Virus record (IMG/VR): IMGVR_UViG_3300021479_000014
Coordinates: 16,610-80,609 of that record
Length of the DNA stretch: 64,000 bases
Strand: one strand, 5' to 3'
DNA from: a virus
Shown here one piece after another: positions 11,165-21,045 of the stretch. The notes beneath the pieces are model-generated. The model saw nothing but the letters and a program-made list of their open reading frames with translations. It made no database searches and was not told the DNA's origin. The number at the start of each line of letters is the position of its first letter. The stretch's first letter is position 1. The translations under genes and the position numbers were made by a program.

Positions 11165-11665
11165 CAACGTGGTGATAGATGATATTTGGCTTTTGATGCG
11201 CACCAATTTGCGTGTCACCATGCCATATGTCATTTATCATTTCACCAATGGTGAGAGATAATTTTTGACTGATGATATATGATATGGATGATATTTGGCG
11301 TGATATGTTCTCGGTTTGTTCTCAGCTGTCATATGTGTTCTTGATCTGTTCTTTATGATTATCATTTGTGGTGACTTCTGATTTTCCGCTTTTGGCTTTG
11401 GTTGCGCACCAAGCATTATGATGTTATCATTGTCTACTTTGTTCTAAAATAAAGCAGACATAAAAAGCATAACGATATCAATGACTTAGGTGCATCAGTC
11501 TACTTTGTCCGCTTTGTATGCTTATCATACCGTCCTACATGTATGATTTAAAATACAGCTATACCAGGTCAGCAAAGATTTATCATTTGGTGGAGCACTT
11601 TCCCCAAGCATTTCAGTTGGTTATGCCTGAAACTTAATCTAAAACATTAAGCAGACAATTTACAG
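11165..11665. other. AT-rich non-coding region, candidate replication origin or genome end
   Basis: No ORF. Repeated tgatat / tctactttgt / aagcagaca words and an IHF consensus match TATCAATGACTTA (11476-11488). Lies directly downstream of the helicase gene. Confidence 0.4.
11307..11351. promoter_or_regulatory. Two tandem alphaproteobacterial LexA (SOS) boxes
   Basis: GTTC-tcggttt-GTTC (11307-11321) and GTTC-ttgatct-GTTC (11337-11351). Confidence 0.55.
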
Positions 11666-11667
11666 AT

Positions 11668-13212
11668 CTAGAATAGATTATGCGATGACATGATGTTTCT
11701 TTCAGTAAAAGTAGGATATTCCCACACATCATTATCATCACCCCAATTAAATTTTGATTTAAGTCTAAAATCCATTAGCGCGCGACAAATACTCAATTTC
11801 GGAATTGTATAAACATTCAGCCGTTCTTTTCCGGCATTGTATTTATCAGTATGTTTTATCATACTAACAATTTTACCATTTGGATAAGTTTGTACTCTAC
11901 CATTATCAAGCTTTGGTATGAGCGCAGCAAATTGCATTCCAAACGATCGTGGATCACATCTATGTTTATCATTTATCCTCTTTTGAGCATCAACAAAATC
12001 TTGATATAATTTTTCTTTCACTACCATATATCCATTATCATTTTGATTAACAAATGGCAATTGGCCACTCACCAATAGATTAAACCACCAACGCTCTACA
12101 CCTGTCATAGTTTCAGTTTTCTGTTCAATTTGCGCCTCAGTTACCAATGCTGTTCTGAGATTAACATCAATTTTCCAATTCATCAATTCATACATGAATG
12201 CTTCCAATCCACCATGCTCCAATAGTTCTTCATCAAGAGCATCGAAATATGATTTAACATCCTTCTGAGCGCTGCTAACATTCAATACAAAAAATCTTCT
12301 TTCATCATATGATGCTGGAACTAGCCAATCAGCATTGCCAATTATGATTGAGCGAATATAGCTCTTCACACTACGACCTGGTAAGTTCTTTGGATTGATA
12401 AATAATGTATCGCCAGTTATGATATGTTTCAATGTGCTCTCGTGAGCCTTATCGCCTGCCCATATTGCTTCTTCCAAACATAACAATATTATCTTTTCCA
12501 AATGATCATTATGAGGGCCAAATATGGAATTTTTACTATCAATTGGCAAATAAATCTTTTGTTTTCGCTCTTCTGGGTAGCCATTCATCAATCGTCCAAG
12601 TGTGAGAGCCAAATATGATTTTCCTATCCCTTTGATACCTTTCAATACCAATGCTGTTCCAAGTTTATTCCATGGCTCTTGGAATATCTGAGCGCACCAA
12701 CACATTAGCCAATGATAATGCTCTTCATTACCACTGCATATAATATTTCTGATATAATCCAAGAACAAATGGCAATCGCCTTGTTTTGGCTCCATAGCAA
12801 ATCCACGCCATGTATTATATGCTCCACTGCGCATTGTTTTAGAATCAAATTTATATTTGGGATCGAATATGATTCCTTTCTCATATGTGCGCCTCAATGG
12901 CCAATCCAACCATAATTGTGATGCTGGAACTGCTTTTGGAGGTCCATCTTCTTGAGTTACATTGATTTTAATATGTCTTAATGAACTGATAAAATCTTTC
13001 TCAGTACGCAACTGCATTTCATCTTCTAATCGCTCATCAATAATCATAAATTTGCCCACTATAGATGTAATGGCTGATATGCTATCCACCCATTCGTTTG
13101 AATCTCTTGTAGATTTGATTTCTGGGCGCTCAGAACGTTTCTGTTGTGCGCCAAAGAGTGGATTATTTCTGAGCTGATTGAGACGGATGATGTTATCATC
13201 TTCTTCAGACAT
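11668..13212 (-). CDS. Primase-associated helicase (DUF5906 / D5-like SF3 NTPase)
   Basis: YNTWRGF, LKGIKGIGKS (Walker A), LCLEEA, ERRFFV; no primase domain. Confidence 0.85.
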   Translation of the reverse strand: MSEEDDNIIRLNQLRNNPLFGAQQKRSERPEIKSTRDSNEWVDSISAITSIVGKFMIIDERLEDEMQLRTEKDFISSLRHIKINVTQEDGPPKAVPASQLWLDWPLRRTYEKGIIFDPKYKFDSKTMRSGAYNTWRGFAMEPKQGDCHLFLDYIRNIICSGNEEHYHWLMCWCAQIFQEPWNKLGTALVLKGIKGIGKSYLALTLGRLMNGYPEERKQKIYLPIDSKNSIFGPHNDHLEKIILLCLEEAIWAGDKAHESTLKHIITGDTLFINPKNLPGRSVKSYIRSIIIGNADWLVPASYDERRFFVLNVSSAQKDVKSYFDALDEELLEHGGLEAFMYELMNWKIDVNLRTALVTEAQIEQKTETMTGVERWWFNLLVSGQLPFVNQNDNGYMVVKEKLYQDFVDAQKRINDKHRCDPRSFGMQFAALIPKLDNGRVQTYPNGKIVSMIKHTDKYNAGKERLNVYTIPKLSICRALMDFRLKSKFNWGDDNDVWEYPTFTERNIMSSHNLF

Positions 13213-13759: not shown

Positions 13760-14002
13760 ATGATAAATGAACACCCAGAAACTGCTAGACAAAGAGCAGC
13801 GCGTATCTGGCGCAATCATCAAATTCAACAAATGGGTATTCAACAGCCAGAGCCAACTATACCTGAAGTGACATTGAATGAGATTGAGGCGCGATTCAGA
13901 AAAGAAATGAGAGATGCGCTCCAACAACACAATAAGAACAAATCATTACTCCAATATTTGATATTGAAACTACGTCAGAGGAAGAGTAAAGATGACAAGT
14001 AA
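13760..14002 (+). CDS. Hypothetical protein
   Basis: Likely start ATG 13760; overlaps the terS start. Confidence 0.45.
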   Translation: MINEHPETARQRAARIWRNHQIQQMGIQQPEPTIPEVTLNEIEARFRKEMRDALQQHNKNKSLLQYLILKLRQRKSKDDK

Positions 14003-14636
14003 TGCGTATCATCCTGATGATCAACCAGCCATGTTGGCTGAAGATTGGGAGCGTATGAAATTTGAGCAGCGCCAACAAGCTGAACAAGAACGTATCAGAA
14101 AAGCTCAACAAGATGAGATCAATCGTGAACTCCATAAAGAACAAATCAAAATAAAGGACAAAATCAATTATACTGAAGAATTGGCACAAGAGATATGTGA
14201 ACGTATTGCTGCTGGTGAGTTGCTCATTAATATTTGCAAAGATGAGCACATGCCCACTGTGCGCCGCTGTAATGTGTGGCTGAAGCAAAATGACGACTTC
14301 AGTATTCTATATAAAGACTCAATCAATGATCGCTTATCCATATTTGAAGAGCAGGTGATCAGCATCGCTGATGATGCAGCGCATGATTTTAGAGAAATAG
14401 TGAAGAATGGAAAGACCATCAAAACGCAAGATGCTGAGGTGATTGCCAGAGCCAAGTTGCGCGTCGAAGTGAGATTCAGGCATCTCAAAGCTGGTAGGCC
14501 TGGCAAATGGGGCGATACTTCAACTCTCATCACTAAGAGTGAGGATGAGGCTGCCATTGACAATATGACCACAGAAGAAATGGAAAAGAAGATTGCTGAT
14601 CTGGAAGAAAAAGACAATATCATCAAAGTGGTATGA
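13992..14636 (+). CDS. terS: Terminase small subunit (Sf6/P22-like HTH)
   Basis: YTEELAQEICERIAAGE.L..ICKDEHMP...W...F...Y...IADD...IARAKLRVEVR...P.KWGD. Confidence 0.8.
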   Translation: MTSNAYHPDDQPAMLAEDWERMKFEQRQQAEQERIRKAQQDEINRELHKEQIKIKDKINYTEELAQEICERIAAGELLINICKDEHMPTVRRCNVWLKQNDDFSILYKDSINDRLSIFEEQVISIADDAAHDFREIVKNGKTIKTQDAEVIARAKLRVEVRFRHLKAGRPGKWGDTSTLITKSEDEAAIDNMTTEEMEKKIADLEEKDNIIKVV

Positions 14637-14709
14637 TTGATGATAAATGATGTTGTAACTTAGCACGTAATTCCTGCCCTCGATCCGAGGCGCTAGATTG
14701 AGTGGCTAA

Positions 14710-15723
14710 TCAGCTATATCTTGTCCACATTTCTTCAAAATCTTCTCTGAACCAGCATCGCTGAACTGGGCCACGTTGGTGCCTATATGGACGGCTTCTG
14801 ATTTGGAATTCCACTAGTATGTTACCCAATACTCGTTTTGTGACTTTGTGCTCAGTATAATCAACCTCGAAATCACCGTCCTTATCTTCACGTAATGTTT
14901 CGCAAAGATAATCTGTGGTGATGATCTTGGCCTTTGTTTTTGTGAACACTTTCTGTGTATCACGCAACACTGACTCTCTTATATCAAGAGTAGCACTCTC
15001 ATTCATATACGTGAGAGCCATACTTCTGACTAAATGGCCTCTACCAAAATAGTCAGCAATGGCAATTAGAGGGCGCCACTTGTCTGCATTACGTCCAACC
15101 ATCGAAAGAGGCATTTTCGGATCTGGATCCAAATTTTGACCCGAATGTTCGGCCCATCTATGCAATTGAGATGCATAGTAATGTTCTCTTGGGCTGAACC
15201 TCTCAAGAGGTTTAGATGAGCGATGCAACCTGATTACAACTGATCTACTCATTAGAGTTGCTGGCACTTTACCGATACCAGCAAGTGCAACTGGGCCATA
15301 AACTGGCCAATTGACTACAGTCTTATCTGGTTGTACGCGCGATACACTTCCACCGAAACTATGCCCGTCATTAAGAATGGATCTCATTCTCTTAACGATT
15401 GACATATTGTCCACTTCGTCAATCAACAATGAGTGTTTGTTGGCTAGACGAAGCAGAGATGCTTCAGATGGATCTATCACTCTTTTGGATTCCCACGCCA
15501 TTGCACCAAGAATATTCAGAACTGTGCTCTTTCCACAATTCGGAACAGGACTGAGGATAGTCAATCTTGGTGACTTATCGTATTGCATGAAGACGTGAGT
15601 ATGTAGCGCCCATAGAGCTGCGCCCCACATATAGTGTGGTTTAGCATCCATATAAGTGTCGAAGACCTTTACCACTTGATCAAGTGGATTTGGCGCTATG
15701 GTAGTTTTCTTTGTCAGACTCAC
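14710..15723 (-). CDS. DUF3631-type P-loop protein (replication-associated)
   Basis: ALWALHTH...SPRL.ILSPVPNCGKST...LLIDEVD...ILNDGH...ALAGIG...SRSVVI...DKWRPL.AIAD. Confidence 0.75.
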   Translation of the reverse strand: MSLTKKTTIAPNPLDQVVKVFDTYMDAKPHYMWGAALWALHTHVFMQYDKSPRLTILSPVPNCGKSTVLNILGAMAWESKRVIDPSEASLLRLANKHSLLIDEVDNMSIVKRMRSILNDGHSFGGSVSRVQPDKTVVNWPVYGPVALAGIGKVPATLMSRSVVIRLHRSSKPLERFSPREHYYASQLHRWAEHSGQNLDPDPKMPLSMVGRNADKWRPLIAIADYFGRGHLVRSMALTYMNESATLDIRESVLRDTQKVFTKTKAKIITTDYLCETLREDKDGDFEVDYTEHKVTKRVLGNILVEFQIRSRPYRHQRGPVQRCWFREDFEEMWTRYS

Positions 15724-15845
15724 AACGGTTCTCCTAATAGGCCGAAATTACGTGCAAAGTTACACGTATGGCTTGGCAGTATTGCCTAAAAGGTGAGCCG
15801 TCCATAGGCGATTTACGATGTCAAACAGCACATTGGTCTAGCCCT

Positions 15846-15874
15846 ATTATAGCACGTTTTCTAATGTGAAGCAA
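15846..15874 (-). promoter_or_regulatory. Strong sigma70 promoter
   Basis: TTGCTT-N17-TATAAT with a TG extension on the minus strand. Confidence 0.7.
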
Positions 15875-16000
15875 ACCCACATTAAATAGTGGCGCATCAA
15901 GTCATCTATCACCATTATCAATAGCTGATGATATTTGACAATTGAACATGGCAAATCTGTGTATGAATTCTGAACCGCCAAAGTGCGGCAAAAATAGGGC

Positions 16001-16029
16001 TTGCCTTCCTTCGCGATTTCGGCTAGACT
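16001..16029 (+). promoter_or_regulatory. Sigma70-type early promoter
   Basis: TTGCCT-tccttcgcgatttcggc-TAGACT. Confidence 0.6.
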
Positions 16030-16035
16030 ACCCTC

Positions 16036-16595
16036 TAGCCCGCTATAGGCGCGGGCGAAGACGATCTGATCTGACTTCTACTGCGGTTACACTTGACATT
16101 CCGCCGAAAGCGGTCTCTGCGGTTTTTGACAGATCCTACGACCCGCTGTTTGACATTCGAGGATTGCTTTATGCCGGCTGGGCTCGTCCGTGTTCGGGGC
16201 TGATTACGCATGTCTGAAGACATGCGGAGAATCAACAGGAGCGGTAAAAGGATCACTCGTAGAATAGCGCAAGTATCACGGGGTTGCGAAGAACAACGCT
16301 CTGATACGAAAGGCAAGCGCATGACAAGTTGCCTGAGGATGTTTGACCAGCCTTAGATGCAGGAAAACAGATTTGACGAACTCATGTAACACCCTGTTGA
16401 GTCCAAAAAGGCAAGAGACAGTGTTTTGAGGGTGCAAACTGGACGGGAAAAGAAACCGTACGTGGCGAGCAAGGGAACATCCGAAACCCAGACATTGTGC
16501 GATAGTGTCTGGTGACCCAAAAAATCAAAGACAGCAATACAGAGCACAGCGGGATGAAATAATCCTGCTGTGTTCAATAGTGCTGTCAGCACTAG
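16036..16595 (+). ncRNA. Putative large structured RNA / 5' leader (~560 nt)
   Basis: No credible ORF. Many hairpins, a long-range helix 16337-16343/16476-16482 and a possible pseudoknot. Confidence 0.55.
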
Positions 16596-16610
16596 AAAGG
16601 AGAAATCAAA

Positions 16611-17045
16611 ATGTCTTATAGAAGTAAAAAGATTCAAAAAGAAAAGCATGAATCTTATTCTGCATCATTGCGACAAATAGTTCTCTCAACAACAAGAGAA
16701 CGTCTACCACAACAAGACGGATATGTTGTGGCTCAAACGCCAAGAAAGAAGCGTTCTAAGTGGCGTATCGTAATTGATCCTGAAAATAGCAAGAAAACGC
16801 GAAAAGTTTCAGGATTCAGAATTAAAACATCAATTAAAGATCCAACTGTCAATCGTTATAGAGAAAACGATCAGAATTTAGGATATATCAACAAGAAGAA
16901 GTATTATGGGAGGTTTACGACTAATCCAAAGACCAAAGGGCGCGTCTTAGCTGTTATTCAGCAACCAGCGCAAGCAGCGTCTCAAGAGTCAGAATATATG
17001 CAGATCGAAGGAATAGTCATCGAAGGCGAGTATACTGAGGAGTAA
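16611..17045 (+). CDS. Very basic hypothetical protein
   Basis: SD aaggag; K/R-rich; first ORF after the structured RNA. Confidence 0.65.
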   Translation: MSYRSKKIQKEKHESYSASLRQIVLSTTRERLPQQDGYVVAQTPRKKRSKWRIVIDPENSKKTRKVSGFRIKTSIKDPTVNRYRENDQNLGYINKKKYYGRFTTNPKTKGRVLAVIQQPAQAASQESEYMQIEGIVIEGEYTEE

Positions 17046-17804: not shown

Positions 17805-17861
17805 GATCGAAACAGCCAGTGCGATTGGCTGTCCTAGCGTTTGGCGCTAGCTGATGAGATC
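17805..17861 (+). ncRNA. Type II hammerhead ribozyme HH1
   Basis: gatc-GAAA-cagcca[gtgcgat]tggctg-TC^-ctagcg[tttgg]cgctag-CTGATGA-gatc; predicted cleavage after C17833. Confidence 0.9.
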
Positions 17862-17879
17862 AGTAACAGGAGAAGTAAA

Positions 17880-18299: not shown

Positions 18300-18360
18300 G
18301 ACCGAAAGGGTGGCGCCACAAGCGCCATTCTCCTAGCGTTAGGCGCTAGCTGACGAGGTC
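18300..18360 (+). ncRNA. Type II hammerhead ribozyme HH2
   Basis: gacc-GAAA-gggtggcgc[cacaa]gcgccattc-TC^-ctagcg[ttagg]cgctag-CTGACGA-ggtc; cleavage after C18332. Confidence 0.9.
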
Positions 18361-20984: not shown

Positions 20985-21045
20985 GACCGAAACTGGCCGC
21001 AGTGATGCGCCCAGTCGTTGCGTAATGCGCAGCCTGACGATGGTC
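20985..21045 (+). ncRNA. Type II hammerhead ribozyme HH3
   Basis: gacc-GAAA-ctggccgca[gtga]tgcgcccag-TC^-gttgcg[taatg]cgcagc-CTGACGA-t-ggtc; cleavage after C21016. Confidence 0.85.

Follow-up and report, generated by a model that had tools for sequence, protein, structure and literature searches.

A structured untranslated leader at the head of an early operon in a group of uncultured phages

The locus and its untranslated leader

The window analyzed here is a stretch of 64,000 nucleotides (nt) covering positions 16,610 to 80,609 of IMG/VR record IMGVR_UViG_3300021479_000014, a complete 80.6-kb sequence from an uncultured phage, and all coordinates refer to this window unless a contig is named. 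An 887-bp gap, with a leftward DUF3631 gene as its left neighbor and a long rightward gene block on its right, holds an untranslated leader of 575 nt running from a sigma70-type early promoter to the ATG at 16611. This region is very probably a genuine conserved structured RNA leader, four hairpins of which (termed M1, central, L and T) are retained via compensatory changes in distant relatives. The features of the locus are listed below from left to right.

11668-13212: DUF5906/VapE-like gene, further left than the two genes that follow
13992-14636: small-terminase-like gene, left of the DUF3631 gene
14710-15723, leftward: DUF3631 gene
16001-16029, + strand: sigma70-type early promoter, read directly as TTGCCT (16001-16006), N17 and TAGACT (16024-16029)
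16038-16056, + strand: 5'-terminal hairpin GCCCGC-UAUAGGC-GCGGGC, from sequence and fold
16054-16175, + strand: 5' domain, with a long-range closing helix of 16054-16066 with 16162-16175
16186-16262, + strand: hypervariable patch, 44% identical to the related leader L002 (see below) within a block of 90-100% identity
16273-16307, + strand: hairpin M1, with 6 bp, 2 bp, a G/G mismatch and 4 bp, and the conserved loop CGARGAA (16287-16293)
16368-16441 (core 16382-16431), + strand: central hairpin, with the conserved strands UGUAAYACCCUGUUGAG and GCAAGAGACAGUGUUU
16488-16512, + strand: hairpin L, CCAGACA/UGUCUGG, with the conserved apex GU-GCG-AU (16497-16503) on a stem of variable sequence
16530-16587, + strand: terminal hairpin T, ~58 nt, just before the Shine-Dalgarno sequence, with an outer 7 bp, a 1-nt mismatch, 2 bp, a 2x2 loop and 14 bp
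16578-16594, + strand: small alternative hairpin UAGUGCU-GUC-AGCACUA, ending 1-4 nt before the Shine-Dalgarno sequence
16596-16613, + strand: Shine-Dalgarno sequence AAAGGAG and first-gene ATG, CAGAAAGGAGAAA being kept in the related leader L010
16611-17045, + strand: first early gene, encoding a basic orphan protein of 144 amino acids (aa) with invariant NDQNLGY and GRFTTN.KT.GR motifs

Transcription is likely to start near 16037, judging from the position of the promoter, which is retained in three related loci described below (L002, L010 and L026; TTGCCT/TTGCTT-N17-TATAGT/TAGACT), the L010 and L026 leaders being otherwise diverged; the block shared with L002 has a sharp onset at ~15997. No + strand terminator was found between the promoter and the 16611 gene, and the region is therefore read as the 5' leader of a messenger RNA (mRNA). 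An earlier note on this stretch had already pointed to a sigma70-like promoter and to the lack of a credible open reading frame (ORF) before 16611, both of which were borne out, as the + strand ORFs are at most 48 aa long and none is kept in the relatives. A hidden + strand coding region was ruled out on these grounds, the ATG of the 48-aa ORF lying in the patch that L002 has rewritten, and tandem promoters were ruled out because the internal TTGACA boxes all lack a -10 partner at 16-18 nt. Two ORFs on the opposite strand, 95 and 98 aa long (16035-16322 and 16353-16649, - strand), span the leader and would be called in a naive annotation; they look spurious and were discounted, as they run across covarying + strand helices and into the start of the downstream gene.

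Related leaders and their covarying hairpins

Homologues were sought with the flanking proteins, DNA patterns and a covariance model. Related loci were recovered in seven other viral or metagenomic contigs and, with the window included, fall into five lineages (A-E), in each of which the same operon opens with a long, structured and untranslated leader. Lineage A consists of the window and IMG/VR 3300037235_000027 and 3300037248_000035 (L002 and L001), whose leaders share 86% identity overall with that of the window as compared with only 83% for the adjacent protein; identity starts abruptly at the promoter, with 84-100% over 16001-16200 and ~96-100% over 16266-16610. Lineage B is the metagenome contig Ga0210409_10005368 (L010), which has the same promoter type and a 573-nt leader (folding z-score, z, of -4.5) directly after a terminase-like gene, with no DUF3631 gene, and lineage C is IMG/VR 3300036832_001484 (L026), with the same promoter and a 539-nt leader (z -7.8). 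The leader of lineage D (L016/L003, L014 and L032) is ~335 nt long (z -3.7) and precedes a different basic protein of 140 aa. Lineage E (L029/L030) has the promoter and the first ~100 nt as in D, followed by a different leader of ~400 nt (z -6.5). A 17-mer scan of viral contigs gave chance matches only (L005-7, L009), the further matches of a first hairpin-pattern scan arose by chance in coding regions (L013, L015, L017, L018) and in unrelated bacteria (L019-L025), and two further viral scans added no lineage. A phage database queried by DNA and by the 144-aa protein gave zero matches; the nearest cultured relative by DUF3631 protein shares 30% identity, and there is thus no close cultured relative.

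The surroundings of the leader are rearranged among these contigs. The DUF3631 gene is divergent in the window, L002, L026 and L003, co-directional in L014, L029/L030 and L032 and absent in L010, and L003 carries two extra small genes as an insertion. The promoter-leader unit stays at the operon head despite these rearrangements (L003/L033, L014/L031, L029, L032, L010 and L026, compared with 13992-16610 of the window).

Hairpin T has a common layout in four lineages, namely an outer stem of 7-8 bp, a small loop, 2 bp, a 2x2 loop and a stem of ~14 bp, with 7+2+14 bp in the window, 8+2+14 bp in L016 and the same arrangement in L026 and L010. Covariance model R1 finds T on the + strand in the window, L002, L026, L016, L014 and L032, and also detects it in L010, which was absent from the training set (56 bits, E value 5e-10). 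Over six sequences, 97.5% of the cells are paired and 8/20 pairs are changed on both sides; none of 500 shuffles reached the observed covariation, and a slid partner gave at most two such pairs. The middle stem, GAGCACAGCG with UGCUGUGUUC, is conserved in sequence, including two G.U pairs, and the top and outer stem vary. Since the G.U pairs would be C.A on the other strand, the conserved halves are separated by a variable spacing (14, 16 or 17 nt) and the R1 scores are weak on the - strand (17-30 bits versus 56-97 bits on the + strand), T is read as a + strand RNA, and a double-stranded DNA operator at this position was rejected.

The three other hairpins are common only to the lineages that clearly carry the 144-aa protein family (window/L002 and L010). 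M1 is present in L010 with 4/12 pairs changed on both sides and 94% of the cells paired (slid controls, 0-2), and is followed by a conserved linker, CGAAAG. The central module was found by model R2 only in the window, L002 and L010; its basal helix CUCA/UGAG has become (A)CUG/CAG in L010, with both partners replaced in 3/14 pairs and pairing kept in 97.6% of the cells, and the stem extension seen in the window's lineage is missing from L010, both arms together. Hairpin L reads CCAGACAUUGU-GCG-AUAGUGUCUGG in the window and UGGGUAGU-GCG-AUUACCCA in L010, so that five of the eight comparable stem pairs, counted outward from the loop, are changed on both sides; these pairs were counted by hand from the folds because MAFFT placed the gaps asymmetrically.

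Further upstream, the long-range helix that closes the 5' domain shares 3 nt with the 3' arm of the 5'-terminal hairpin and encloses a nested hairpin (ACUGCGG...CUGCGGU, with an inner CCGC-CGAAA-GCGG, 16080-16123). All six pairs of this helix that differ between the window and L002 stay paired in an RNAalifold comparison, two of them changed on both sides, which gives the helix moderate support, as two lineages only inform it and the predictor favors covariation. The L010 and L026 leaders also begin with a hairpin of other sequence (GGCC-GGAUAA-GGCC and UUCGGGAG...CUCCCGAA, respectively), and the three 5' hairpins are analogous, not aligned pair by pair. In the hypervariable patch, hairpin CGCAUGUCU-GA-AGACAUGCG (16207-16226) is replaced in L002 by a different hairpin, UUGCUGCGUG/CGCGCAGCAA. 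Within lineage D, a helix read as CCGCGG/CCGCGG has become CCGCAG/CUGCGG in L032.

The hairpins proposed from the window alone fared differently in this comparison. GCCCGC/GCGGGC (16038-16056), CCGC-CGAAA-GCGG (16100-16112), GCAUGUC/GACAUGC (16207-16226), CCAGACA/UGUCUGG (16488-16512), GAGCACAGCGGGAU/AUCCUGCUGUGUUC (16542-16575) and UAGUGCU/AGCACUA (16578-16594) were all recovered. A proposed ACUCA/UGAGU hairpin is unconserved and is displaced by the covarying CUCA/UGAG alternative, and a suggested pseudoknot between CACCCU and AGGGUG is likewise unconserved, the AGGGUG partner being missing from L010. Two long-range pairings gave uninformative comparisons: both arms of GGAUGUU/AACAUCC are invariant in L002 and missing from L010, and the pairing of GAUGCAG with CUGCAUC in the coding region shows a wobble-compatible change in L002 and is missing from L010.

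The full leader has a folding z of -4.87 on the + strand, contributed by its last ~110 nt, and of -3.22 on the - strand. With the last ~125 nt removed, 16036-16485 alone gives z = -0.75, with 25/100 shuffles folding equally well, and its L002 equivalent gives z = -0.26. Among 120-nt windows only 16200-16319 (z -4.4, also the local value for M1) and 16480-16640 (z -6 to -11) stand out. The dense pairing described in the earlier note thus applies to these two segments and not to 16036-16485 as a whole, where folding is no better than in the shuffles, as opposed to the full leader. Folding no better than in shuffled controls was among the outcomes that the earlier note named as refuting its proposal, and the first 450 nt show just this outcome; the claim of a structured RNA survives because of covariation, not folding energy.

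An Rfam scan, as the earlier note had proposed, placed the leader in no described family. Specifically, no family matched anywhere in the 64-kb window at the gathering threshold of Rfam 15, the unmatched families including GOLLD, ROOL, HEARO, OLE, raiA, EAR, riboswitches and self-cleaving ribozymes. Permissive scans of 15800-16800 and of three sub-stretches of ~200 nt gave chance-level scores (at most 23 bits versus thresholds of 33-100); scans this short were included since a hammerhead overlooked in a 5-kb scan was picked up in one of 91 nt. Most permissive matches were microRNA-precursor models on T, as expected from its long irregular hairpin.

Taken together, the region is non-coding, extends from promoter to gene with no terminator and shows compensatory changes, as would any structured cis-regulatory 5' leader, and it appears to represent an undescribed family of structured early leaders in a small group of uncultured phages. 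The homologue collection and covariation check yielded compensatory changes for M1, central, L and T, so that the proposal of a large structured phage RNA held as regards a long non-coding RNA and not as regards uniform dense pairing; the family is rarer and less uniformly structured than had been implied. Several points weigh against this interpretation or against the role proposed for T below. The first 450 nt receive no structural support from folding energy (z -0.75 and -0.26 for the window and L002). Only the window's lineage and L010, at full length, have most modules in common, and the 5' halves of the five lineages are unalignable, so that the support is for individual modules and a single global fold is not established. 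Covariation rests on 3-6 sequences, with some alignments fitted to the structure under test, and the R1 search found no T in the structured leader of L029/L030. The conserved middle-stem sequence of T across otherwise fully diverged lineages suggests a sequence-specific binder, whereas a nuclease that reads shape would not need it. Finally, transcription, the start site and any cleavage, as well as the role of the upstream modules, are all inferred from sequence.

Possible roles of the leader

Hairpin T may, as a tentative assignment, act in cis on processing, stability or translation, and would most plausibly be cut by a nuclease specific for double-stranded RNA. This role is favored because the shape and position of T match RNase III sites of T7 and lambda, and because hammerhead ribozymes occur in the same operon. 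In the proposed sequence of events, host RNA polymerase would start near 16037 and transcribe through the leader into the 16611 gene, and the leader would fold as a chain of modules, from the 5' hairpin and 5' domain through a replaceable variable hairpin to M1, central, L and T. T has the layout of an RNase III substrate (about two helical turns, or some 20 bp and more, of largely unbroken duplex, often with small internal loops), forming an irregular double-stranded hairpin of 23-24 bp directly before the ribosome-binding site, and host RNase III would be the most plausible cutter. Cleavage at T would leave an early mRNA with a new 5' end, which could refold into the small hairpin beside the Shine-Dalgarno sequence, and would release a leader RNA of ~500 nt with a hairpin at each end.

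The small hairpin at 16578-16594 and the outer stem of T are mutually exclusive. Comparable alternative hairpins re-using the 3' outer arm of T can be drawn by eye in L016 (GCUGGA/UCUAGC, ~11392-11409) and L026 (GGGA/UCCC, ~2705-2722, - strand). These hairpins, drawn as they were by eye, suggest two mutually exclusive states of this arm in three lineages.

Processing at T would fit an operon that is apparently cut into gene-sized pieces by hammerhead ribozymes upstream of ribosome-binding sites. Three intergenic cores were located, each just upstream of a Shine-Dalgarno sequence.

17805-17869: type II hammerhead core
18300-18360: type II hammerhead core
20985-21045: type II hammerhead core

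The order of elements in these cores is a stem II strand, GAAA, stem III, GUC, stem I, CUGAUGA or CUGACGA, and a stem II strand. In the 91-nt scan, the Rfam Hammerhead_II model scored 25.5 bits (E value 0.001) on the first core, below its gathering threshold of 37, and the 5-kb permissive scan missed it. Multiple hammerheads flanking genes in polycistronic prophage RNAs have been documented (Perreault et al. 2011, PMC3088659).

Three other RNA-level explanations were weighed, two of which, antitermination and binding by the 16611 protein, had been put forward in the earlier note. Processive antitermination, in which one or more modules would bind RNA polymerase directly or recruit a phage or host factor so that polymerase reads through the early operon, is an unlikely account. 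The element directly follows the early promoter and precedes a long hairpin-rich operon, but convincing intrinsic terminators were not seen on the + strand over the next ~20 kb. The first gene encodes a small, very basic protein, like lambda N, and a long untranslated leader rich in purines (57% A+G) would be open to Rho in the absence of antitermination; however, the leader has no conserved nut- or put-like element and no conserved boxA/boxB pair. Specifically, CGCUCUGA (16297-16304) resembles boxA, which is single-stranded and CGCUCUUA-like, but it is base-paired as the 3' arm of M1, is changed to GUGCUUGU in L010 and is followed by no conserved boxB-like hairpin, and no two-stem unit of the HK022 put kind common to all lineages was found. 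T, as the sole module common to four lineages, keeps both sequence and shape, as a binding site would, yet L029/L030 lack it and the 5'-proximal parts differ among lineages.

It is also improbable that the leader is an operator RNA, with the 144-aa protein binding the central hairpin and/or T and thereby repressing or activating its own translation, or forming a ribonucleoprotein with the leader. The protein is strongly basic and without a known fold, but RNA binding by it is purely hypothetical. It had no match in Pfam, PHROGs, NCBIfam or PDB sequences, its AlphaFold2 model was unusable (predicted local distance difference test score, pLDDT, of 43), and the ESM Atlas returned only weak look-alikes, which were basic-arm virus proteins. 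A homologue with 33% identity follows the L010 leader, and the restriction of the central hairpin, L and M1 to the two lineages clearly carrying this family would suit an operator; the further homologues P0001 and P0003-P0007 are 37-96% identical in a protein alignment, and the contigs encoding them are excluded from the covariation set. T lies ~25 nt upstream of the ribosome-binding site for the 144-aa protein. However, T also precedes the apparently unrelated 140-aa basic protein of L016/L014/L032, which gave no BLASTP alignment to the 144-aa protein, and L029/L030 encode a homologue of the 140-aa protein but have no T. T is therefore not tied to one protein family, as it occurs with two unrelated first-gene proteins and is missing from a relative with one of them. 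In L026, moreover, a small extra ORF intervenes between T and the basic-protein homologue. This ORF (L026:2520-2691, - strand) encodes ~58 aa, is rich in lysine and arginine and has the motif FRVWTRNPKA.

Nor do we find it probable that the leader is a trans-acting noncoding RNA of a ~540-575-nt class, cut at T or made in surplus, and acting on a host or phage target early in infection, for example by capturing a host RNA-binding protein, nuclease or defense sensor via its conserved loops (CGARGAA, GUGCGAU, central hairpin) or by counteracting a defense system. No search suggested a target, the only visible 3' end signal is T and the 5' two-thirds differ greatly among lineages, against which stand a length of 540-575 nt in three lineages, far beyond the need of a translational operator, sequence-conserved loops (CGARGAA, GUGCGAU and CGAAAG) that could contact partners, and hairpins at both ends that would stabilize a released RNA.

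At the DNA level, the leader region could instead be an origin or an array of TGTTTGACA-like operator repeats beside replication genes (DUF3631, DUF5906/VapE-like), the RNA structure being incidental. The motif TGTTTGACA (at most one mismatch) occurs 5 times in 525 bp versus 29 times in the 80.6-kb genome on both strands, a ~25-fold enrichment. When compared with iterons, the copies are clustered, irregularly spaced and partly kept in L002, not in L010. In addition, a perfect 12-nt inverted pair, GCUGUUUGACAU (GCTGTTTGACAT), flanks the divergent promoters at 15818-15829 (- strand) and 16145-16156 (+ strand), its upstream copy, which precedes the DUF3631 gene, being a conservation island in L002 and L026, and related lineages bear GTTC-N7-GTTC repeats just after the -10. 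This explanation is very improbable, as selection on RNA pairing is evident from the compensatory changes, the retained G.U pairs and the differing distances between half-sites, the repeats are not kept in L010 (TTTGAC changed to TTTCAA or within the deleted stem extension) and the internal TTGACA boxes have no -10 partner.

Further TGTTTGACA-like motifs are at 15932, 16123, 16340 and 17056; these motifs could be operator sites, a few of which could coexist with the RNA. The G+C content of the leader region is 0.47-0.56, as compared with ~0.37-0.45 in the flanks. The GTTC repeats of lineages D and E are two overlapping GTTC-N7-GTTC direct repeats right after the early promoter -10 (L016:11100-11135 and L029:4620-4650; also L014 and L032). 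The window has GTTC-N7-GTTC boxes at 11307 and 11337 (11307-11351), with none at its own early promoter. The motif has the form of the alphaproteobacterial LexA box, and the repeats hint that the host may be an alphaproteobacterium and that some lineages may place their early operon under SOS control.

Few long structured RNAs without an assigned function are known, and new biology has usually come to light with each further class. Should T serve in processing or control, the whole early program of these phages would be organized at the RNA level, with the order promoter, structured leader, processed first gene and ribozyme-separated genes forming a compact system for the timing and stability of early messages. 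With a leader acting in trans, phages would have an RNA effector of a new kind. A leader with a stabilizing role only would be a modest addition, namely a new RNA family for databases and a better annotation of an 890-bp "empty" gap.

Comparison with known systems

Hairpins processed by RNase III are known in phage early transcripts, such as T7 R0.3 upstream of gene 0.3 and the lambda N-leader hairpin, and RNase III recognition does not require a conserved stem sequence. T resembles these sites in its irregular stem of ~23-24 bp, interrupted by small internal loops, and in its location, within an untranslated leader that follows the early promoter and directly ahead of the first early gene's ribosome-binding site. 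It differs in that its middle stem is conserved in sequence and that the upstream leader is much longer and has other conserved modules; moreover, cleavage of T is a prediction.

The lambda nut site recruits factors, and the HK022 put RNA, two adjacent stem-loops of ~65 nt, binds polymerase directly. The present leader resembles both in that a cis-acting RNA closely follows an early promoter and the first gene after it encodes a small, very basic product, but it is 5-8 times longer, lacks a conserved boxA/boxB or two-stem put architecture and has no obvious downstream terminators. With large structured noncoding RNAs from bacteria and phages (GOLLD, ROOL, HEARO, OLE and raiA) it shares a length above 500 nt, phage association, multiple hairpins, conserved loops and GNRA-like CGAAAG elements. 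In contrast to these classes, it has no Rfam match, is fused to an mRNA and not a separate gene, has a fold that is for the most part not thermodynamically distinctive and is very rare in the collections searched.

Finally, the operon can be compared with hammerhead-punctuated prophage transcripts (PMC3088659). T is without a hammerhead or other known ribozyme core, so that its cleavage, unlike theirs, would need a protein nuclease; as in those transcripts, however, three type II cores precede ribosome-binding sites here, and T fills the equivalent slot before the first gene.

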